Shown here: positions 15,938 to 28,592 of the stretch, piece by piece
How the letters are laid out: the number at the start of each line of letters is the position of its first letter
Position numbering within the stretch: the stretch's first letter is position 1
Origin: Pseudomonadales bacterium
GTDB taxonomy: Bacteria > Patescibacteriota > Microgenomatia > UBA1400 > PJMF01
Direction: 5' to 3'
DNA length: 61,470 nt
NCBI GenBank assembly: GCA_020632235.1
Contig: JACKFY010000003.1
Location: 160,139 to 221,608 of the forward strand
Position numbers and translations under genes: made by a program
The notes under the pieces: generated by a model
Database searches by the model: none
Told to the model about the DNA's origin: nothing
The model's input: the letters and a program-made list of their open reading frames with translations, nothing else

Positions 15938-16198
15938 ACCAGAAGTCAAAAAAAAGAACAGAAACTAGTACATTACTTTTGGAAGCACTGCCACATCTGG
16001 ATAAAACTCTCTTGGCGGATGCTCTTGGTATTTTAGGTAGTGGTTGTACAAAACAGATTTTATTCAGGTGAAAAAAGACAAGCAGTTAAAGCAACAAATT
16101 GAGGAGGTGTAGAGCCCTCACCCAGAGCAAAGCCAGTTATATGGCTACCGCAGGTTAGCAATTGAACTAGGAGTTGGTAAGAAGGAATTCGCAGATGT

Positions 16199-16826
16199 AT
16201 GAAGAAATATGGCTTGAGGCCATACAAAAGAAAAGCCAGATGGCGAAAAAGAAGAGATGAACAAAGAAAGCCAGTAGCTTTTGCAAACGAGATTAAAAAC
16301 CAGTGTCCACTAGTACCCAACCACACTTGGGCTGGAGATTTTACATACTTGCCATTTAAGGGCAAGTTTATCTACGTAGCTACTTTCTATGGATATTTTT
16401 ACCAGAGAGATAGTGGCTTGGCAAATATCCGATAGACATGACAAAACATTGGTTAATGCAAGCCTTTTAGATGGCTTAGTTAACCGAGACTTCCAGAAAC
16501 CAATATACATCCACTCTGACCAAGGAGCAGAATATTGTTCCCAAGATTACACTTGATTTAGTGAAGAATTTTGGGGTTAGCAATTTCCATGAGTACCAAG
16601 GCTTCTCCCTGGGAAAATGGTTACCAAGAATCCTTTTACAACAACTTTAAAACTGACTTAGGCCTTGAGTTTGACCGCTTCGACGATGAAGGGCACTTTC
16701 TGGAAGCAATACACCACACCCTTTAGAGCTACAACCATGAAAGAATTCACTCTGCCTTGAAAATGCCACCCTCCAGATTCCATGCCAAGTATTTACAATC
16801 CGTGTCTACGAAAAGGGGCGCTTGAC
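16199..16826 (+). pseudogene. IS3-family OrfB DDE integrase core, split by several frameshifts
   Basis: PNHTWAGDFTYL, IHSDQGAEY, PWENGYQESFYNNFK and RIHSALK occur in different frames. Confidence 0.8.
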
Positions 16827-16906
16827 AATGTGCTATTAAATTTCGTTATTATAACGCATCAATATCAATTCCCGTAAGTTCTTTTATTTTTAATTTTGAT
16901 CCATTA

Positions 16907-17368
16907 TCAATAGCTTGTAAAGCTATACAGAGATTTTATTGTTACTCCATGGTCTCCTTCCGATGGCGATAAATACCTTTCCTCAGACAAGCCTAATACT
17001 ATTCCAGGACCAAGTGTAGTGGTGGTAATTCCCAGTTTTTGAAGCTTTATAATCAATGTTTCTTTTCTTCCAATACTTGCCATTCCGCTATCTGTTAACG
17101 CATAAGGTCTAGCTAGTTGGGGGTCTGTTTCTACATGCATGGTTCGTGCATCTCTATTAAGTAAATAACTACCTTCGGCAATATCCAACAACAATGATCC
17201 CAAATTAACACCTCTAAAATAAAGCGAAGTACTGGGATCATAAGCTTCAAAAACTTGTGAATCATCGACTTTTTTCAGAATTTGAAATGCTGCATCAACA
17301 ATACTAATTCTAGTTTGTCTCTCCGGAATACCACCTTGATCAAAATTAAAAATATTGCCTTTACTCAT
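16907..17368 (-). CDS. Cassette 6: hypothetical protein
   Basis: 153-aa ORF starting about 35 nt after the attC5 core; no family recognised; the true end may be 16849 (..LQAIDNGSKLKIKELTGIDIDAL*) if frameshifted. Confidence 0.65.
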   Translation of the reverse strand: MSKGNIFNFDQGGIPERQTRISIVDAAFQILKKVDDSQVFEAYDPSTSLYFRGVNLGSLLLDIAEGSYLLNRDARTMHVETDPQLARPYALTDSGMASIGRKETLIIKLQKLGITTTTLGPGIVLGLSEERYLSPSEGDHGVTIKSLYSFTSY

Positions 17369-17402
17369 ATTACTTTACATATTGGTAAATTTAATAGCAT
17401 TT

Positions 17403-17537
17403 CATATAACGTTTTGCAGCTACCCGAAGGTGGCGATTTCGAAGCACTTCACTGTCAGCTAAGCACAAACTTTGATAGAGGCACAAAGCTTGATTTAACC
17501 ACTGAACCGCCACTTTTGGGTAGGTGCTGTTATGGGC
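17403..17537 (-). repeat. attC-like site 5
   Basis: R'' GCCCATAAC (17537-17529, contains the CPBP stop TAA), R' GTTATATG (17410-17403); arms CTACCCAAAAGTGGCG / CTACCCGAAGGTGGCG, 14/16. Confidence 0.9.
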
Positions 17538-18346
17538 TGGTGTTCTTCTCGCGTTCATTTGTCGCTAAATTTTTTGGCTTAAAAATAATGATTGTCAAAA
17601 TACCCCAAACTGTTATTAAAAATCCCATATAGTTCACGATATTTTTGTCGGCAAGGTCTGCTGTGAATGCGATGTCTATGGTTGAGTGAAAAAAAACAGC
17701 ACAAATTAAAATACTTGCTCTGGATGAGTTGTAAAGCCAAGTCAATAAAATACTTCCTGTCAATAGGCTAAATGTCCAGCCGAATATGCCTGCAAAATCC
17801 ATTGAAGTGTAACCTGGTCTGTAAAAGAAAAGTGGCCAATGCCAAACAGCCCAGAATATTGTCAAAATGATACTTGAAGTCAAAGCATTAAACTTGTCTT
17901 GAAACCTTGGCAATGCAAAACCCCGCCAACCAACTTCTTCTCCAAGTCCAAAGAAGATTAAGTTATAAATGAAAAATGTCAACAAGTTGAATTGAGGAAA
18001 CTCTTTTGAAGTTAAAAGACCCGAAATATTGATAGGCGAGTTATCAACGAAGTAGTTTATGATTGTCGCAATGAAAACGAGTAAGAATGGACTTAAAAGT
18101 GCGATTGCAAAATAAATTAGCGGTCTAACTTGTAAGCACTTTTTAATCAAACTTTTTACACCTTCGTTATTTTGAAACATCCAAGTTGTAAGAAATTAAA
18201 GCCGATTAACGGACCAAGTCCACCAAGTCCGTGGTAATAAGCAAGGTCGGCAAATTTGTCAACCCCAAAATGTGTCCATATAGCGGAAGCCAAATTGTCC
18301 AACTGATTAAATATGCAAGTCCGAAATATGTTATTAGTTGTTTCAT
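17530..18346 (-). pseudogene. Cassette 5: CPBP/Abi (CAAX-protease-like) intramembrane metalloprotease, two 5' frameshifts
   Basis: EEVGWRG, WAVWHWP, H motifs; N-terminus MKQLITYFGLAYLISWTIW starts at 18346 in another frame; stop lies inside R''. Confidence 0.85.
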
Positions 18347-18377
18347 TTCTTTTTAAACTCTGTCGTCACTTACACTT

Positions 18378-18518
18378 GCCCATAACGGTTGGGCGGTAAG
18401 GTATGAGTAGTGGCGGATTACGGAGCACTTTCCTGTCAAGATACGATGAACTTGATGCGAGGTAGAACGCCTGAATACGCTACAGCCCCCGCCATTACTT
18501 ATACACGATGTTATGGGC
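18378..18518 (-). repeat. attC-like site 4
   Basis: R'' GCCCATAAC (18518-18510), R' GTTATGGGC (18386-18378); arms GTATAAGTAATGGCGG / GTATGAGTAGTGGCGG, 14/16. Confidence 0.9.
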
Positions 18519-18537
18519 TGGGCTTCTTTTTCTGTCG

Positions 18538-19167
18538 TCAATAACTATACTTGTCATTCAGTCCTATTCCGTTAAAAATCTGTTCTTTGTATTTCTCAAT
18601 TCGACCAATTCTTGTTTGTGATTGCTTGGGTTGTGAAAAATGAATGATATAGCCCCTTTGTCGTCCAGCTGTTAATGCGTAAAATGCTTTCTTAAATGCA
18701 GGGTCTTGTTCAAATGCTTCAAGAAGTTCGTTAGGAATTGGTTCAGGGTTTTTCTTAAACTCTACTTTTTTTCCGCTTTCTTCAATTTCTATTGCTTCCA
18801 AAACGTATTCTTTTAAAACATCTTTTACTTTCTCTATGTCTTTAACATTGGTGAATTTTATAATTCTGTCTGACTGCAAATTTCCTTGTTGTTGGAGTAT
18901 TTTATGTTTGTCAGTCAATAATACTCCTTTGAAAAAGCCAATGTTTGCCGATTCCTTCAATGCACCCACAGAAACAATGTTTTTCCCTTTATGCGTATAG
19001 ACTGGTGCTCCCCATTTTATTTCTTCTGTCAAACCTGTTTCTAAAACAATTTGTCTAAGCATTTCCAATTCTTCACGCCAATTATGGACTTTGCATTGTG
19101 GCGTTCCGCCATACTTACAACGCATACAGCCGTCAATAAGATATTTGTCTACTTGTGGGTTCATCAT
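18538..19167 (-). CDS. Cassette 4 gene 2: DUF1801 plus YdeI/OmpD-associated domain protein
   Basis: EEIKWGAPVY, IGFFKGVLL, AFYALTAGRQRGY, TR..RIEK. Confidence 0.85.
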   Translation of the reverse strand: MMNPQVDKYLIDGCMRCKYGGTPQCKVHNWREELEMLRQIVLETGLTEEIKWGAPVYTHKGKNIVSVGALKESANIGFFKGVLLTDKHKILQQQGNLQSDRIIKFTNVKDIEKVKDVLKEYVLEAIEIEESGKKVEFKKNPEPIPNELLEAFEQDPAFKKAFYALTAGRQRGYIIHFSQPKQSQTRIGRIEKYKEQIFNGIGLNDKYSY

Positions 19168-19540
19168 TTTGTTAGAAGGTTTAATCTGTATTCAATCATT
19201 TTGATAATCAGTTCTTCGGGCAAAGGTTTATTTATAGGGAACAGAACAGAACCTTTACCTTTTTTGTAATCTTTTAATTCTTCATCAAATTTCTCAATTG
19301 TAGTGGGGTGAGGATAAAGTCCAACGTGATTTTATAACCTGCCATCATAATTTGTTGTTCTCTTTTTCCATTTTTTATTAGGGCATACGCTGGAATATTA
19401 TAATTCAATAATTCTTCTGCATCTGGAACAACCTTAAAAATACACTGTCTAATTTGAAGTAATGTATTTTTTACCTTTTCAGGTTGCGAATGGAAGTAAT
19501 CTTCTACTGAATTTATTTTTGCACTATTGTCCATAAGCAT
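19164..19540 (-). pseudogene. Cassette 4 gene 1: DUF1801 (YdhG-like) protein, one frameshift
   Basis: VEDYF, LLQIRQCI, YNIPAY; adding one A restores YKNHVGLYPHP..GKGSVLFP..KPLP and a stop overlapping the next ATG. Confidence 0.8.
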
Positions 19541-19581
19541 TTTAAATTATCCGTTTTTTCAACTGTCTGTCGTTTAGCCTT

Positions 19582-19654
19582 GCCCATAACGGTCGCGTGT
19601 ATGTGGCGTAGCCTGCCGATAGGTGGCTATGACATATACACAGTGTTAGGTAGC
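19582..19654 (-). repeat. attC-like site 3 (short, 73 bp)
   Basis: R'' GCTACCTAAC (19654-19645), R' GTTATGGGC (19590-19582); arms GTATATGTCATAGCC / GTATGTGGCGTAGCC, 12/15. Confidence 0.88.
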
Positions 19655-19669
19655 GTTTTTTTTACTTTT

Positions 19670-19963
19670 TTAGGTTAATAATCCGCAAATCAGCCCACCA
19701 ATTAACCCCAATGCCATTATTGGTTTAAATGCCTTCGTTATCAAAGCATCTGGAAAACTCATTACTCCGCCAATTATTAATCCCTTCAACCAACCCTGTA
19801 TTGGCAAGTCAATGTTGAAAATAATAAACCCAATAGAAAACCTATTTACAAATGAAGCAATAATTGCTTTTTGCTTATCTTCAAATTCCATAAAGAACAT
19901 TGGTATTATTGAGGTAATTCCAAAAATTGTCCCAGCAATCAAACCTTTGATAATATTATTCAT
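19670..19963 (-). CDS. Cassette 3 gene 2: small membrane protein of unknown function
   Basis: 97 aa, about 4 Gly-rich TM segments; ends just before R'' of attC3. Confidence 0.75.
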   Translation of the reverse strand: MNNIIKGLIAGTIFGITSIIPMFFMEFEDKQKAIIASFVNRFSIGFIIFNIDLPIQGWLKGLIIGGVMSFPDALITKAFKPIMALGLIGGLICGLLT

Positions 19964-19967
19964 ATTT

Positions 19968-20312
19968 TCAACTTTTTAATTCGTAGGCAGATTTAGCCAA
20001 CTTATCAATTCTTTGTCAACATCATTAAGTTTTTCCAATTTAACTATATGCTTAAATCTGTTAGCAGATATTTTTTCAATTTTTTGTATTCTTTCACTCT
20101 CAATTTCAAAGTTTGTGTGAATTTTCAACAAGAGGTAGTTTTTCCGTGAGTAAACTCCAGCAAATCCCGATTTACTGTCCAAATGAATGCTTGACTTTTT
20201 AGGTAATTGAGTTACTGTTCCAAATTTTTTCGCATTCGGTTATTAGTTTCTCGTAGATTTTGGAAACTATTGGTTCTTTATTTATCAAGTGGTCATTAAC
20301 CGTATATTCCAT
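19968..20312 (-). pseudogene. Cassette 3 gene 1: DUF5655-like protein, two homopolymer frameshifts
   Basis: Reconstructed MEYTVNDHLINKEPIVSKIYEKL..PKKSSIHL..FAGVYSRK..HIVKLEKLNDVDKELISWLKSAY. Confidence 0.7.
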
Positions 20313-20331
20313 TTGTTTGTTTTTTCGTAAT

Positions 20332-20467
20332 GCTACCTAACGTTTTGAATATGGTGCGTTTGGCATTTTGAAACACGTCATTTTCAAACTACTATTATTT
20401 TTTATTAATTGCTATAAACTTCATTTTTTGCACTTTCTGCCAAATGCACTATATTTTTGTTAGCTGC
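20332..20467 (-). repeat. attC-like site 2
   Basis: R'' GCAGCTAAC (20467-20459), R' GTTAGGTAGC (20341-20332); arms ATATAGTGCATTTGGCA / ATATGGTGCGTTTGGCA, 15/17. Confidence 0.9.
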
Positions 20468-20472
20468 AGGTA

Positions 20473-21049
20473 TTACTTTAATTCTCTTCCTAATTTTTCA
20501 ACTTTGTTAACCAACTTTTTCTTTTTGTACATCTGTTGAACTTTTAACAGGTCCAAAAGTTGTTATTTTCACGGGTTTAATGCCAACAAAAACTCCAAAA
20601 TCGACTTTTTCATTGAATTATGTCCAGGCTTTTATAAATCAATGAATAATACCAATTTGGTGTGTCAGTCGTTACAATTAATCTTGCAGTTTTTCAGTTA
20701 ATAGTTTTTGAGAACGGTGATTTCTCTTGGTATTCAAAAGCAAATCCAGGCAGAAACAATCTCATCAAAAATCTTTTAACAACGCAGGATAAGTCCCCCA
20801 CCAATTGGGATAAACGAAAACCAAATGATCAGCTTTTGTTATTAAATCCCATACTTTTTGTAAGTCTGGTTCCAAATCTGTTCGTTTTCTGTACCCATAT
20901 TTTAATACAGGCGAAAATTCTAAATCTGTGAGGTTAATAATTTCACATTCTGTTTCGGACTTATCTACTCCTGTTTTGTATTTTTCTGCCAATGAAGTGC
21001 AAAAACTCTCTTTGTCAGGATGTCCATTAATTATCAATATTCGTTTCAT
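20473..21049 (-). pseudogene. Cassette 2: NAD(P)H:quinone oxidoreductase (flavodoxin_2/MdaB-like), several frameshifts
   Basis: ILIINGHP, ADHLVFVYPNWWGTYPALLK; the downstream LFLPGFAF, KTARLIVTTDTP and GIKPVKIT segments lie in shifted frames. Confidence 0.85.
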
Positions 21050-21078
21050 ACTTACTGTCCTTTATATTGGTTTTACTT

Positions 21079-21223
21079 GCAGCTAACGTTTGCGTGTATG
21101 AGAAGTTTCGCACACAACCTTAATTTTATCAATTAAATGTGCGAAATTTGGGAGAAAGAAAAAGTGCAACCTTTGAAAATTACTAACGCACTTTTTCTTG
21201 AACCTTATACACGCTGTTATATG
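21079..21223 (-). repeat. attC-like site 1
   Basis: R'' CATATAAC (21223-21216), R' GTTAGCTGC (21087-21079); arms GCGTGTATAAG / GCGTGTATGAG. Confidence 0.88.
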
Positions 21224-21243
21224 ACGTATTGCTCAGACCCCTA

Positions 21244-21840
21244 TTAGTAGAGATTAAATTTGTCTAAATGATCTCTAATTCTAAAAAATATTTTTTTGTG
21301 ACCTTCTGAAGTCGGATGTAAGCCATCGTCTAAATCAGTTTCATTAATTACATCAAAGGTTGGAATAAAATGGACGTTTTGTTGGGATGAAATTTTTGCA
21401 ATTGCTTCATCGTATTTTTTTAGCGTTTCGTTCTTGTAGTACTTTTTCTTGTCACGGAGGTAAACAGCGTTGATTTTTTCCTCATCAACTTTTGTTAAAC
21501 CAACTAAAATAATATGAGAAGTGTAGGATCTGGCCATATCAACAAGCTCTTCAAAATTTTTGATTGTATCTTCGAGATTGACTCTATATTTCTTCTCATC
21601 AGTAAAATACTGTGAATCGTTGCCGGCAATTGCAAAAATTATTATTTCGGGTTTACGTGGCTTACATTCGTTATTAAACCTTTGAAGCAGGTCATTAGTA
21701 TCGTCTCCAGAAATACCAAGGTTAAAAATAAAAATGCCTTTTCCAAGAAGATATCTCTTTAGAAGGTCACACCAGCCGCCTTCTTTAAAGTCGTTCATGC
21801 CGCTGGTAATACTGGCTCCAAATACACAGGCTTTCTTCAT
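21244..21840 (-). CDS. Cassette 1: SGNH/GDSL hydrolase
   Basis: Block I FGASIT, block II NLGISG, block III GND, block V DGLHP; intact. Confidence 0.9.
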   Translation of the reverse strand: MKKACVFGASITSGMNDFKEGGWCDLLKRYLLGKGIFIFNLGISGDDTNDLLQRFNNECKPRKPEIIIFAIAGNDSQYFTDEKKYRVNLEDTIKNFEELVDMARSYTSHIILVGLTKVDEEKINAVYLRDKKKYYKNETLKKYDEAIAKISSQQNVHFIPTFDVINETDLDDGLHPTSEGHKKIFFRIRDHLDKFNLY

Positions 21841-21904
21841 AAAAAATATTTTTTAGAATTGTTTGTAAGATAAACTTTCATTTACGGTTGTCTGAGCAAT
21901 ATTT

Positions 21905-21966
21905 CATATAACACTTGTCTATACGAACCTTTTGTAACTAAAAGTTAGTATAGACAAGATATCAAC
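21905..21966 (-). other. attI-like primary recombination site with adjacent hairpin
   Basis: Core GTTATATG (21912-21905) matches R'' of attC1; no inverse core upstream; perfect 11-bp inverted repeat at 21914-21924 / 21948-21958. Confidence 0.7.
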
Positions 21967-21988
21967 AGTATGATAGTGTTTTATTACC

Positions 21989-22831
21989 ATGGTAAAAACG
22001 GATATTACGAACTTTAGGAAGAAGATGAAGATTCAGCGGTACTCCCCTCGTACCGTCAAAATATACTGCTCGCATGTTGCGCAGTTTTTCGCACATAGAC
22101 AACTGCAACCGAATCAAGTCACAAAAATAAATATCGAAGAGTATGTAGCGTTTTGCATTGACCAGAAAAACATCGCGTTTTCAACCCAAAAAGGCATCGT
22201 GGGTGCAATCAAGCTCTTTTACACATTATGCTATAACAGAAACCTGCACATCGACTACATCTACCCCAAACGAAAAGAGTATAAGATGCCCACAGTACTC
22301 TCACAAAATGAAGTAGCCCTACTACTCAACGCGCCCACAAATCTCAAACATAAGACAATCTTAAGCCTTATATACAGCTGCGGACTCAGGCTCTCGGAGG
22401 TTGTCAATCTCAAAATAGCAGATATCGACTCAGCTCGCATGCTGATTCACATACGGGCAAGTAAAAATAACCGCGACAGAGACGTGATGCTCTCGCCCAA
22501 AATTCTCACACTGCTCAGAAGTTACTTTGCAGAGTACAAACCGACGGTTTATTTGTTTGAGGGGCAAAAAAGAGGCAAGTACTCCACTCGCTCTGTGCAA
22601 AAAGTTTTCAAAATAGCACTCGCAAATTCAGGCATCCAAAAGAGCGCGAGCGTGCATACTCTTCGTCATTCTTTTGCAACACATATGATAGAAAACGGCA
22701 TAGATGTACGCGTTGTCCAAGAGCTGCTCGGGCACAAAAATATCCAGACTACCCAACTCTACACGCACATCACTACCCACATGAAATCAAAGATAAAAAG
22801 TCCCTTTGACACGTTGCTTGCCTCAACTTAA
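21989..22831 (+). CDS. Tyrosine recombinase, integron-integrase-like (short form)
   Basis: N-terminal SAM-like region (YSPRTVKIY); catalytic R (YSCGLRLSE), K (SKNNRDR), HTLRH, LLGH, TTQLY; divergent from the cassette array. Confidence 0.92.
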   Translation: MVKTDITNFRKKMKIQRYSPRTVKIYCSHVAQFFAHRQLQPNQVTKINIEEYVAFCIDQKNIAFSTQKGIVGAIKLFYTLCYNRNLHIDYIYPKRKEYKMPTVLSQNEVALLLNAPTNLKHKTILSLIYSCGLRLSEVVNLKIADIDSARMLIHIRASKNNRDRDVMLSPKILTLLRSYFAEYKPTVYLFEGQKRGKYSTRSVQKVFKIALANSGIQKSASVHTLRHSFATHMIENGIDVRVVQELLGHKNIQTTQLYTHITTHMKSKIKSPFDTLLAST

Positions 22832-23229
22832 CCCACTCTCCCACCCGCCCGCACCGCCAACTCATCAGCCTTTAGCAGCTCTTTGAGCTCATCGAGTGTT
22901 TTTACATCCTTTGGCGGCCGGATAAACCTATCAATAGTAAACTGCACCTCTTTGCCATATACCTCACCGTCAAAATCAAGGACGTAAACTTCAAGCACCT
23001 GGGTCGTCTCCCCCAGCACGTAGCGAGGGCCGTAGTAGAGTCCCCCTACATACTCTTGTCCTTCCAAGATTAGTTGAGAAGTATAGACTCCCGGCTTTGT
23101 ACTGCGGGGAATGCTATGAGCATCAAGGTTAAGCGTGGGGTACCCAATGGTTCTACCCAACTTCTGCCCAGCAAACACGTGGCTGCTGTACCACACTACG
23201 TGCTTCTCCTCCTGATCTGCACCCGCCAT
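22828..23229 (-). CDS. Stand-alone riboflavin kinase (RibF C-terminal domain only)
   Basis: GQKLGRTIGYPTLN, GVY, LEVYVLDFDGEVYG, FIRP; no FAD-synthetase domain. Confidence 0.88.
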   Translation of the reverse strand: MAGADQEEKHVVWYSSHVFAGQKLGRTIGYPTLNLDAHSIPRSTKPGVYTSQLILEGQEYVGGLYYGPRYVLGETTQVLEVYVLDFDGEVYGKEVQFTIDRFIRPPKDVKTLDELKELLKADELAVRAGGRVG

Positions 23230-24107
23230 AAACTGAAAAATACTAAGCCTGCACCAAGAAACTGAGTGTTGGTGAGTGTTTTATCAAAATACATATAGTC
23301 TATAGCCACTGCTGAAACTGGCCACAGTAACTCAAACAGCGTTGCTACTCGCGCAGGCGTATGCTTGAGCCCTGTGTAGTAAATAAGCAAGCCCACCATG
23401 CCAGCTGAAAGAGCTATAAGTAAGATGGCCTGCATCTGGACAGCAGTTACACTGAGAAGTTCTGGTGTTTTGCCCAACAGCACAACAAGAATACCTGCCA
23501 TCACGGTAGTCAGTCCAAAGCGCATCACTGTCGAGGTAAGCGCTGAGGTGGTGTTAAGCACCATCTTACTAATTACCGTTGAGGAGCCCCAACACGCGGC
23601 TGCACCCAGTGCCATCAGTGCTGCTAGAAGCGTTGCAGTATTTCCCTGTGTGTTGAGAGTGAGAGTAGGAAATGAAAGCAAGTACGCACCTATCAGAGCC
23701 AGCACCAGCCATACATAAAACTGCTTGTTCACCTGCTCTTTGAGCATAAATCGAGCCAAGACAACGACAAACAGCGGCTGGAGCTGTTGGAGTAACACCA
23801 CTACCGAGTACTGAATGTACTCCACTTTGCCAAGTGCCGCCGTGTAGAGAACTGTGCCCAGAAGCCCAGAGAAAAAAGCAACAACGGTCATTGTCATCCA
23901 GTTTTTTCTTGAAACTGTCTTGATTTCTGAAAGCCAACGAGGAGCTGTAAGGAGCAACAGTGTAAGGCCAAACAGATGCTCTAAAAACACTAATACCAGA
24001 GGTGATAGAGTGTACAACTCACGACGGAGCACATCATCAAAACTCCATACAATGGCCGCACACGCAACAAGAAAAGGGGCAACTGTTTGTATGCGGGTGG
24101 CATTCAT
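23196..24107 (-). CDS. EamA/DMT family transporter (possible riboflavin importer)
   Basis: 10-TM duplicated EamA pattern (LQPLFVVVLARFMLKE; ELLWPVSAV); overlaps the riboflavin kinase start. Confidence 0.85.
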   Translation of the reverse strand: MNATRIQTVAPFLVACAAIVWSFDDVLRRELYTLSPLVLVFLEHLFGLTLLLLTAPRWLSEIKTVSRKNWMTMTVVAFFSGLLGTVLYTAALGKVEYIQYSVVVLLQQLQPLFVVVLARFMLKEQVNKQFYVWLVLALIGAYLLSFPTLTLNTQGNTATLLAALMALGAAACWGSSTVISKMVLNTTSALTSTVMRFGLTTVMAGILVVLLGKTPELLSVTAVQMQAILLIALSAGMVGLLIYYTGLKHTPARVATLFELLWPVSAVAIDYMYFDKTLTNTQFLGAGLVFFSLWRVQIRRRST

Positions 24108-24207
24108 ATGTACCTAGTTTCGTATTGATTAGAAAAAGGCAGAGCGCTACACTAGCCTTCACGAGCAGACACGGTAGTGTAGCATACTTGAAAGAAAGAA
24201 AGCGTAT

Positions 24208-25500
24208 ATGCAGATAGTGATCATTGGTACAGGGTTTGTGGGCGTAGTAAGTGCGGCAGTGTACGCCTCGTTTGGACACACGGTGTACGGGCTTGACATA
24301 GATGAGCACAAAATCACTTCTCTAAAACAATCGAAGGTTCCCTTTTTTGAACCAGGGCTTTCAGAGTTATTGACGCAGCAACAAGAAAATGGCAACCTTC
24401 ATTTTACAACAAGTTATAAAGAGGCTATTACAGATGCTGATGTTGTGATTATTGCTGTCGGCACACCCTCAAGACCCGATGGCAGCGCCAACCTATCGTA
24501 TATCTATGCAGCTGGTGAAAGTATGGCGCCTTACTTGAAAGAAAACGCTGTAGTAGTCATCAAGTCAACGGTGCCACCTGGCACCATGGATGGTGTTACC
24601 CAAACAATCAAAGAGCACACCAGCACGCCACTCCATTTTGCCTCACTGCCAGAATTTTTGAAAGAAGGCAGCGCTGTTGCTGATACCCTCAAGCCAGACC
24701 GAGTGGTGATCGGTAGTAGTAGCGAGCATGCCAAAAAACTCTTGAGCGAACTACATGAGCCACTCGGCGCACCCATCGTCCACACCAGTATCGAGTCTGC
24801 CCAGATGTCAAAGTACGCTGCCAACGCCTACCTTGCCTCACGCATCAACTTTATCAATGAAATAGCCAATTTATGTGAAATAAACGGGGCTCATGTACAA
24901 GAAGTAATCAACGCTATGGGCTACGACAAACGGATCGGCCATCACTACTGGTACCCAGGCCTCGGCTTTGGCGGCTCATGCTTCCCCAAAGATGTAGCAG
25001 AGTTGGCGTCGTACTCAAAAGAGCATAGCTTGGACGCCAACCTTTTTGTATACCTTGATGCAGCTAACACACAGCGCATCCAGATAAAATGGAGAGAGTA
25101 CACACAGCTGCTTGACGGATGGCAAGGAAAAACAGTCGCCGTGCTCGGGCTGGCGTTCAAGCCTAATACCGACGACATGCGCGTTGCCCCCAGCCTAGTG
25201 TTTGTACCACAGCTCCTTGAGGCTGGCGCACTGGTTCGTGCATATGACCCCAAGGCAACCCCTACGGCAAAACAACTATTTGAAGAACATGAGCGACTCA
25301 TCTATGCAGACACCATCACGCAGGCAATCACCGATGCAGACATCATCATTCTCCTAACTGAGTGGGACGAGATCGTGCAGTTTGATTTCTCAAAACACAC
25401 AGAGAAAGAAAAACAACAGTGGATCATTGACACTCGAAATAGACTGAACAAAGCAACGTTAGAACAAGCAGGATACCACTATGTCAGCATTGGATCATAA
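24208..25500 (+). CDS. ugd: UDP-glucose 6-dehydrogenase
   Basis: IGTGFVG, AVGTP, KSTVPPG, PEFLKEG, GFGGSCFPKD, GLAFKPNTDDMR. Confidence 0.95.
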   Translation: MQIVIIGTGFVGVVSAAVYASFGHTVYGLDIDEHKITSLKQSKVPFFEPGLSELLTQQQENGNLHFTTSYKEAITDADVVIIAVGTPSRPDGSANLSYIYAAGESMAPYLKENAVVVIKSTVPPGTMDGVTQTIKEHTSTPLHFASLPEFLKEGSAVADTLKPDRVVIGSSSEHAKKLLSELHEPLGAPIVHTSIESAQMSKYAANAYLASRINFINEIANLCEINGAHVQEVINAMGYDKRIGHHYWYPGLGFGGSCFPKDVAELASYSKEHSLDANLFVYLDAANTQRIQIKWREYTQLLDGWQGKTVAVLGLAFKPNTDDMRVAPSLVFVPQLLEAGALVRAYDPKATPTAKQLFEEHERLIYADTITQAITDADIIILLTEWDEIVQFDFSKHTEKEKQQWIIDTRNRLNKATLEQAGYHYVSIGS

Positions 25501-26437
25501 CGCACCGATCTTACTTACAGGTGGCACGGGATTTGCCGGCTCTCATCTCTATGATCTGCTCGTAGAGCGCGGTTACACCAATCTTCACCTCACCAGCCTC
25601 ACTGGCAGCCATACAGCACGATTCCCTCAGGCTACAGTACACGCGCTTGATCTCACCAACACGGAAGCTACATGCACTCTTTTCAAACAAGTACACCCAA
25701 CAGCCATTGTGCACTTGGCGTCTATTCCCACCACTCACGACCCGAGCCTGCCCAAGCTCTACACCCTGCATCAAAATATCGCTGTGCAAGACTCGGTGCT
25801 TGAAGCAATGCGACTACATACCCCTACTGCTCGACTCTTGGCTATTACCTCGGCAGAGGTCTACGGCCACCACAACCAAGGCAACACACCACTCACAGAA
25901 ACAACCCCATTTACCCCAGCCAATGAGTACGCTGTTTCAAAAGTCTATCAAGATGCGCTGTCGTGTCAGTACGCTACAGAGCACAACCTAGACATTGTCA
26001 GGGTACGCCCCTTTAATCACGTCGGGCCGCGGCAGACTCCCCATTTTGTCGTTGCCTCCTTTGCCAAGCAAATTGTTCAGATTGAGAATGGTGCGCAAGA
26101 GACACTACAAGTAGGAAATCTCGATGCTGTACGCGACTTTACCGATGTGCGCGACGTGGTGCGCGCCTATCTTGTGTTACTAGAAAATGGAGTGTCTGGC
26201 GACGTCTACAACGTAGGGAGTGGTGTGGGCATCTCTATTACTTCTCTTTTGGACATACTGCGCGAACACTCTCGGGCTGAGATCAGTGTTGTACAAGATA
26301 AAGCACGATTGCGCCCCAGTGATAATCCCGTTATGATTGCAGATGTGACGAAACTAACAACACTTGGGTGGCAACCAACACTACCACTCAAAACAACCGT
26401 ACTCGATATACTTGCCTACTGGAGGGAACAACTATGA
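25481..26437 (+). CDS. GDP-4-keto-6-deoxy-D-mannose reductase (Rmd/Tld-like SDR)
   Basis: [48 protein letters not shown]; directly upstream of gmd. Confidence 0.75.
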
Positions 26438-27408
26438 AGAAAGCATTTATCACCGGCATTACTGGTCAAGACGGCTCGTACCTGGCAGAGTTCTTACTTG
26501 AAAAAAAGTACCAGGTATACGGCTTGACACGAAGAACAAGTACTCAAAATTACGAGCGTATCGCTGGTATTGTTGACAACCCCAACTTGACACTTGTCTC
26601 GGGGGACTTGAGTGACCAACACTCGCTGACACACGCGCTCAAAGAGATTCAGCCAGATGAAGTCTACAACCTTGCTGCCCAGTCATTTGTCAAAGCTAGT
26701 TGGGATCAGCCCGTACTAACGGGCGACTTTACTGGACTGGGAGTTACGAGAATGCTTGAGGCTGTCAAACTCGCCGTACCTCACGCCAAGTTTTACCAAG
26801 CCAGCTCCAGCGAGATGTTTGGCAAAGTCCAGGCAGTACCCCAAACTGAGAGCACTCCATTTTACCCTCGATCGCCCTATGGAGTTGCCAAGGTCTACGG
26901 TCACTGGATCACCATCAACTATAGAGAGTCCTACGATATGTTTGCTATTTCTGGTATTTTGTTTAATCACGAGTCTCCTCGCAGAGGGCTTGAGTTTGTA
27001 ACCAGAAAAATTGCCAACGCCGTGGCGCGTATCGTAGTGGGAAAACAAACCCATGTTGAGCTAGGCAACCTTGATGCACAACGTGACTGGGGTTACGCCA
27101 AAGACTATGTCGAGGCTATGTGGCTGATGCTGCAACAAGAAAATCCAGAAGACTACGTCATTGCAACAGGAGAAACCCACTCAGTACGAGAGTTTTTACA
27201 GCTCTCTTGCGCGGCAGCCGGCATATCAGATTGGGAGTCAGTTTACAAACACAACAAGCAGTACGACCGCCCAGCAGAAGTTGATCTATTGATTGGCGAT
27301 CCATCAAAAGCGCACAAAAATCTTGGGTGGAAACCAAGCGTGACGTTTGAAGAGCTGGTTTCACTGATGGTACAAGCCGAGATAGAAAAAGAACAACACA
27401 CTGCATGA
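26434..27408 (+). CDS. gmd: GDP-mannose 4,6-dehydratase
   Basis: [54 protein letters not shown]; start 26434. Confidence 0.97.
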
Positions 27409-28592
27409 AACAAACCGCCGTTGTTATCATTCCCACCTACAATGAGCGGGAAAATATAACCACTACTATCGAAGCACTTCTAGCCGTATTCAAAACAATC
27501 TCTGATTGGAAGATGTTTATTTTAGTTGTTGATGATACATCACCAGACAAAACATACGAAGTAGTGCGCCAGGTTGCCGCAAAAAACAAACAAGTGCACT
27601 TACTGCTCAATAAAAAAAAGTCGGGACTAGGTGGCGCTTACCTCAAAGGCATGGAGTACGCCTTTGGCACTCTGCAGGCCGACGCAGTATTTGAGTTTGA
27701 CGCCGATCTTTCTCATGACCCACAGCGTATTCCGGCCTTTCTCAAACAATTACATGAGGGAGCTGATATGGTGCTTGGATCACGCTACATACAGGGCGGC
27801 TCTATTCCTAGCAATTGGGGGGCGCATCGAAAATTGCTCAGTATTGGCGGCAACACGCTCATCACCGTTGTCTTGGGAAATAGAAGCATTCGAGATTGGA
27901 CAACAGGGTATCGCGCACTTACGAAAGATGTCTATCTGGCCGTTGAGCCACACCTACACGCAGAAAAATTTACTGGCTATACCTTTCAAATTGGATTTTT
28001 ACACACTGCTATAGAAAATGGATTTCGCGTCGTTGAGGTGCCCATCCACTTTGTGGACAGAGCGTATGGTGAATCTAAAATTGGCCCCGAGTACATCACC
28101 AACACGCTCCGCTACATTGTGCGGGTGCGAGCAAGCTCGCTTATAAAATCTCGGTTTTTTAAGTTTATGGTGGTGGGGGCTATTGGTGCAGCTGTGCAGC
28201 TGGTATCACTTCAAGTACTTCGGGTAGTACTTCCAGAATTTTCTCTCTTTCATCTTGACACCTACATGTTGGCCTCAATAGTGAGTATAGAACTAGCCGT
28301 ACTTTCAAACTTTATTCTCAATAATACCTGGACATTTGCTGATAGAAAACTACAGGTAGGTGAGTACGTACAAAAATTTTTCCAGTTTAATATGGCTTCA
28401 TTAGGCTCCATTGGTGTGCAACTGGTGATAGCATTTTTGGGGAAAACACTCATTGGTTTGAAGCACTTGTTTACCGTGCCCTTGATTGGAATATCTGTCG
28501 ATACAGGCTTGGTCTTTGCTGTTGTTGGCATCTTGGTGGGTATGGCATGGAACTTTTTTGCCTACACTACTTTTATCTGGAAAAAAAAGTAA
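27405..28592 (+). CDS. Polyprenol-phosphate hexose synthase (DPM1-like GT2) fused to a GtrA flippase domain
   Basis: [37 protein letters not shown]; C-terminal [19 protein letters not shown] GtrA pattern. Confidence 0.88.

Follow-up and report, generated by a model that had tools for sequence, protein, structure and literature searches.

A predicted riboflavin salvage operon pairing an ImpX-type permease with a kinase-only riboflavin kinase in a Patescibacteria genome

Background

Nicotinamide riboside is taken up and phosphorylated by PnuC–NadR, a system that combines a facilitator with a cytoplasmic kinase. For riboflavin, the closest described proteins are ImpX, RibN (an EamA-type importer of alpha- and gamma-Proteobacteria) and RibF (the bifunctional riboflavin kinase/FAD synthetase), together with the stand-alone riboflavin kinases of bacteria. 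Linkage to an FMN riboswitch is the standard criterion for predicting bacterial riboflavin transporters, and the ImpX protein of Fusobacterium nucleatum was predicted in this manner and then confirmed by complementation of an Escherichia coli ribB mutant (PMC4418817). ImpX has been described as monocistronic, and published surveys encountered it only in riboflavin prototrophs (PMC4418817, PMC6593275). It has also been described as distantly homologous to SLC52/RFT2 (PMC4418817); the SLC52 fold is MFS/ENT-like (PMC12044054).

Here we describe a gene pair from a member of the Patescibacteria (CPR bacteria), found in a 61,470-nt stretch of DNA (hereafter, the window) that belongs to genome G000 (870 kb in 6 contigs, 95% complete). 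The features on which the analysis turns are the following, in window coordinates.

23196..24107, minus strand: gene for an ImpX-type EamA/DMT permease of 303 aa, a predicted riboflavin importer (two PF00892 repeats, E 4.1e-34; similarity to ImpX; clade)
22828..23229, minus strand: open reading frame of a monofunctional riboflavin kinase (RFK; PF01687), 133 aa from ATG 23229, probably 122 aa from GTG 23196
23194..23198, minus strand: TAGTG, in which the permease stop overlaps the kinase GTG start by one base (read from the sequence; orthologous kinases start here)
23205..23213, minus strand: Shine–Dalgarno-like AGGAGGAGA, 8–11 nt before the GTG and within the last permease codons (read from the sequence)
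24108..24207: divergent intergenic region of 100 nt, 5′ of the permease, without an FMN riboswitch (Rfam scans)

The permease shares with ImpX the EamA/DMT architecture (303 versus 299 aa) and a common clade, and nine of its CPR orthologues lie behind FMN riboswitches; unlike ImpX, the window gene has no riboswitch, is apparently coupled to a stand-alone RFK and resides in a genome in which no riboflavin synthesis markers were found, and in some relatives the two genes are fused. RibN shares its superfamily and predicted function with the permease but has marginal similarity to it (E 1e-4 over 84 aa). The RFK carries the PTxN, GVY and LE.Y.LDF motifs of the kinase module of Thermotoga maritima RibF, whereas the adenylyltransferase module of RibF is missing. 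The predicted arrangement resembles PnuC–NadR in that the substrate of a facilitator would be trapped by a dedicated kinase, although the proteins are unrelated and the vitamin is different.

The permease belongs with ImpX

A preliminary description of the window had reported an EamA gene overlapping a kinase-only RibF domain at 22828–24107, and both open reading frames are present at these positions, on the minus strand. The 303-aa product of the EamA gene (23196–24107, −) contains two EamA repeats in Pfam (PF00892, E 4.1e-34), in keeping with the architecture of the ImpX family (two repeats, ~300 aa, ten predicted helices), and it ends in a basic C-terminal tail, RVQIRRRST. The protein Atlas model of the permease has a pTM of 0.84 and TM scores of 0.86–0.90 against EamA clusters. 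General resources gave no more specific assignment: the protein Atlas returned only generic EamA clusters, NCBIfam only generic DME-family matches, and a search of PDB sequences a single match, LicB (E 1e-5).

The impX sequence was recovered with the published primers (PMC4418817). The forward primer matched five metagenome contigs, and in four of them an FMN riboswitch follows the primer site after ~250 nt. In one contig (L146; 24–28% G+C), an exact match to the reverse primer lies 17 nt past the stop of the single open reading frame between the primers, such that the two primers flank an FMN riboswitch and one 299-aa EamA open reading frame (L146:5133–6032). This is the ImpX gene that rescued the E. 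coli ribB mutant. A reverse-primer match in a Methylocella metagenome-assembled genome (L002) proved to be a chance 21-mer match. The notion, derived from the SLC52/RFT2 homology, that ImpX is not a DMT protein was rejected, as the recovered open reading frame itself contains two PF00892 repeats.

The window permease and ImpX share 35% identity over 272 aa (90% of the length, E 7e-47), a full-length similarity that is closer than that to other EamA subfamilies. When G000 was searched with ImpX, only the window permease was matched (E 2.7e-42), whereas the EamA paralogue on contig C4 was not. In a quick maximum-likelihood tree, which has thin outgroup sampling and long branches, ImpX nests within the CPR clade (SH-aLRT 98), and a set of RibN-type proteins forms a separate sister to ImpX plus the CPR clade (SH-aLRT 94). 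That comparison set consists of FMN-riboswitch-linked EamA proteins from an order-level alpha-proteobacterial sample around the Methylocella genome, their identity as RibN resting on riboswitch linkage and taxon rather than on a named sequence; they form one family with 41–79% identity. The best BLASTP match between this set and the window permease has an E value of 1e-4 over 84 aa, the best matches of the permease in the alpha-proteobacterial genomes are other paralogues, and the RibN-like protein used as a query has no matches in five CPR genomes. The likeness to ImpX suggested in the preliminary description was therefore upheld, by identity, by the single match in the genome and by the common clade, whereas closeness to RibN-type transporters was not found, neither search direction recovering the other family. 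By sequence relationship, the window permease is ImpX-type and not RibN-type.

The kinase gene and its junction with the permease

The adjoining open reading frame matches Flavokinase (PF01687) with an E value of 8.4e-24 and a score of 84.6 bits (cut-off, 19.6). NCBIfam RibF models cover it at their C-terminal kinase module only (positions 174–283 of 290), and it aligns with residues 168–275 of T. maritima RibF (PDB 1MRZ), which bears out the earlier reading of a kinase-only RibF domain. In the alignment with 1MRZ and orthologues, the motifs GYPTLN, GVY and LEVYVLDF..VYG are intact; the nucleotide/flavin-binding motifs GYPTLN, GVY and LEVYVLDFDGEVYG are thus shared with both. The protein (122–133 aa) has no FMN adenylyltransferase module, and it is the sole Flavokinase in the whole genome. 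Judged by its domain content, the window RFK is a kinase-only riboflavin kinase, for which FMN formation is predicted.

The two genes do overlap, as had been reported, but an overlap of 34 nt requires that the kinase start at ATG 23229, and no ribosome-binding site was seen upstream of that codon on inspection of the sequence. By contrast, an AGGAGG site precedes GTG 23196, and orthologous kinases begin one residue ahead of a conserved W, which is the position of this GTG. The permease stop TAG occupies 23198–23196 and the GTG 23196–23194, so that one base is common to both. The start of the RFK is thus probably GTG 23196, with a stop/start overlap of 1 nt rather than 34 nt. The AGGAGG site and the GTG at the orthologue start position make a translationally coupled TAGTG junction likely, and this overlap suggests that translation of the RFK is coupled to that of the permease.

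The main rival to this reading is that the two open reading frames are one permease–RFK fusion gene whose frame is broken by a single-base mutation or error within the T5 run (23236–23240); the function would be unchanged, with a single polypeptide carrying it. Loss of one T from this run would join the frames, and four relatives have in-frame fusions, among them one (G409, L106) from the family to which G000 belongs. Against this, the strong AGGAGG site and TAGTG have the look of a real two-gene junction, separate genes overlap by 17–23 nt in many relatives, and the basic RVQIRRRST tail is an ordinary way for the permease to end on the cytoplasmic side. We therefore regard a split fusion as unlikely and treat the locus as two genes.

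Downstream, the RFK faces a convergent tyrosine recombinase gene (Phage_integrase plus a SAM-like N domain; window 21989–22831, +), which overlaps the RFK stop by 4 nt. Beyond the recombinase lies a low-GC island (~16000–22000; 32–38% versus ~47%). It holds a GDSL lipase gene and, at 20765–21049, the truncated fragment of a flavodoxin-like NAD(P)H oxidoreductase. On the other side, several genes for sugar-nucleotide enzymes and glycosyltransferases form a run that diverges from the permease (window 24208–28592, +). Its first gene encodes a UDP-glucose/GDP-mannose dehydrogenase according to Pfam, and the next two open reading frames resemble, from their translations alone, an NAD-dependent epimerase/dehydratase and a GDP-mannose 4,6-dehydratase. 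This run seems to have no relation to flavins.

Flavin metabolism in the genome

The flavin complement of G000 was profiled in the whole genome. Neither lumazine synthase (RibH), GTP cyclohydrolase II (RibA) nor a RibU-type ECF component was found. The preliminary description had noted that the window contains no FAD synthetase, and this holds for the entire genome, in which profile searches returned no FAD synthetase domain (PF06574). A RibL-type FAD synthetase was considered and rejected, because the only cytidylyltransferase-like (CTP_transf_like) protein encoded in G000 is NadD. The genome does encode flavin-dependent enzymes, namely an FMN-using tRNA dihydrouridine synthase of the Dus family and the FAD enzyme thioredoxin reductase TrxB (C1:134627–135700, at the TIGR01292 cut-off). 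The presence of Dus and TrxB indicates a cell that depends on flavins. With no markers of riboflavin synthesis found, G000 thus appears unable to make riboflavin and able to make FMN, with no recognisable route to FAD.

This complement bears on what the permease carries, and in which direction. Many DMT proteins export a broad range of substrates, the NCBIfam matches of the permease are generic (DME family), and no FAD source is evident in G000; the protein might therefore carry another flavin-related compound (FMN, FAD, roseoflavin, lumichrome or deazaflavin) or export flavins, with the RFK merely co-regulated. However, the characterized member of the family imports riboflavin (PMC4418817), the substrate of the RFK is riboflavin, and fusion of the kinase to the permease is sensible only if riboflavin arrives inside. 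In addition, with no riboflavin synthesis markers found in G000, the cell would have nothing to export. These observations render another cargo or direction very improbable, and we retain riboflavin import as the predicted function.

Linkage and riboswitch control among relatives

Permease orthologues were collected at a threshold of E ≤ 1e-20 from a sample of the phylum (301 Patescibacteria) and a sample of the class (301 genomes). In the phylum sample, an orthologue is present in 19 genomes, 18 of which encode an RFK (versus 76 of 301 overall) and 13 of which have it within ~2.3 kb on the same strand. In the class sample, the orthologue occurs in 34 genomes, with an RFK in 33 and adjacent in 24. 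When the samples are combined, 48 of the 50 orthologue genomes encode an RFK and 35 have it within ~2.3 kb, leaving 15 orthologues that do not adjoin one; these counts come from related genomes and are not statistically independent. The two genomes without an RFK (G129, locus L084; G526, locus L114) are 85% complete, and in each the permease gene stands at the edge of a contig; their kinase genes have probably just escaped assembly. The order and orientation of the genes vary, yet the linkage persists: permease then RFK (as in the window), RFK then permease, convergent genes and in-frame fusions are all observed. Three of the four fusions (423–448 aa) contain both Pfam domains, and the fourth is an open frame of 437 aa. 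The conservation of linkage across the CPR, which the preliminary description had left to be checked, is thus borne out.

FMN riboswitches provide a second line of comparison. In nine of 45 loci (L045, L078, L086, L090, L093, L096, L097, L098 and L114), the permease orthologue is immediately preceded, on the same strand, by an RF00050 match that exceeds the Rfam gathering score. Four of these nine are riboswitch–permease–RFK operons. In L078, L086 and L096, the riboswitch precedes the permease and the RFK is elsewhere in the genome; in L045, the riboswitch lies between an upstream RFK gene and the permease; and in L114, the contig ends before any gene downstream of the permease. The window copy lacks this mark of the ImpX family. 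An Rfam scan of the whole window at gathering score found a tRNA only, an E-value scan of 23900–24500 gave no match to RF00050 even at E 10, and a scan around the permease–RFK pair recognised neither a sigma-70-like promoter nor an intrinsic terminator.

EamA genes are common and the window copy has no riboswitch, as would befit a generic exporter that happens to lie beside a housekeeping kinase, but such chance adjacency is hardly credible and already contradicted by the comparative data, given that the pair stays within ~2.3 kb in 35 of 50 genomes through several rearrangements, four are fused, nine orthologues have an FMN riboswitch and the other EamA paralogue of G000 is not matched by ImpX.

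The surroundings of all 75 other RFK genes in the phylum sample were surveyed and the neighbours clustered. Riboflavin synthase (ribE) is a neighbour in 21 loci and lies directly downstream of the kinase in 18, with ribH following in 16. The permease is a neighbour in 12 loci, including the window, and is directly downstream in nine; in the window, it precedes the RFK. Two loci have the order kinase–ribE–ribH followed by the permease. The phyletic pattern is similarly structured, with the permease present in 14 of 31 genomes that have RFK without RibH, in four of 45 that have both and in one of 225 without RFK. The neighbour and phyletic patterns thus show the importer in the position beside the RFK that ribE–ribH fill in relatives that make riboflavin.

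The survey also turned up other neighbours and fusions of the RFK. Fe/Mn superoxide dismutase genes occur beside it in eight loci and Mur ligase genes in 11. The kinase is fused to RibE in L041, L050 and L063, and to 5-formyltetrahydrofolate cyclo-ligase in L024 and L033. In one Patescibacteria family (genomes G118, G047, G019 and G096, all without RibH), the RFK forms the C terminus of an ABC-transporter ATPase (L028:3176–4354, L040:234–1517, L042:3092–4363 and L044:3989–5119), and a BPD_transp_1 permease gene is nearby in two of the four loci; here a transporter seems to have been joined to the kinase independently, for a second time. Finally, L102:564–1463 (G424) encodes an RFK–NUDIX hydrolase fusion beside two tandem ImpX-type permease genes, and its NUDIX part might split FAD to FMN.

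Proposed function

These results are best accommodated by a two-gene riboflavin salvage operon, a reading that we consider very probable. The ImpX-family DMT permease would import riboflavin from the environment or a host, and the kinase-only RFK, translated by coupling to the permease stop, would phosphorylate it to FMN. As FMN could not leave through the facilitator, phosphorylation would trap the flavin and pull uptake forward, and the FMN would then serve enzymes such as the Dus tRNA-dihydrouridine synthase. The data show the gene identities, membership in the ImpX family, linkage and fusion to the RFK, riboswitch control of orthologues and the failure to find markers of riboflavin synthesis; which compound is carried, in which direction, and how it is trapped are our inference. 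The candidate flavin salvage role put forward in the preliminary description gains support from the ImpX similarity, the RFK linkage and the lack of synthesis markers; the window copy, which has neither an FMN riboswitch nor a recognised promoter, speaks against it.

The origin of FAD is a separate matter. Because G000 encodes TrxB and no FAD synthetase was found, the salvage route proposed here is not complete. True FAD synthetase domains (E < 1e-30) are present in six of the 301 Patescibacteria sampled, all of one family, whereas 76 of the 301 have an RFK, and in most of the flavin-using Patescibacteria sampled the flavin pathway visibly stops at FMN. The small number of FAD synthetases, and the occurrence of TrxB with NadD alone, raise three options: an undescribed FMN adenylyltransferase, FAD import or FAD enzymes that operate on another flavin. 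It is possible, if somewhat doubtful, that one of these applies in these Patescibacteria and that ImpX–RFK is the single entry point for flavins. In the family with real FAD synthetases, one locus (L006; G084 C6:22150–23002) has RFK and FAD synthetase as adjacent, separate open reading frames with the kinase first, whereas in RibF the two domains come in the opposite order.

Both ImpX and riboflavin kinase had been described before, and our literature search found no published description of an ImpX/EamA–riboflavin kinase module in the CPR. What is new is the occurrence of an ImpX-type gene in a genome without detectable riboflavin synthesis genes, the tight coupling or fusion of an ImpX-type permease to a stand-alone kinase, and the loss of the riboswitch in the G000 lineage. 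Since surveys had encountered ImpX only in prototrophs (PMC4418817, PMC6593275), its candidate role as the sole supply route is new as well, and the published view of ImpX-type facilitators as a feature of prototrophs only is contradicted.

The analysis gives a specific, predicted function to a large, unnamed EamA family of CPR bacteria, and it offers the most likely explanation of the FMN supply of cells in which riboflavin synthesis genes are not detectable. That importer and kinase have been fused repeatedly would be a clear example in nature of uptake tied to metabolic trapping, and riboflavin would be a supplement worth trying in the cultivation of CPR bacteria.
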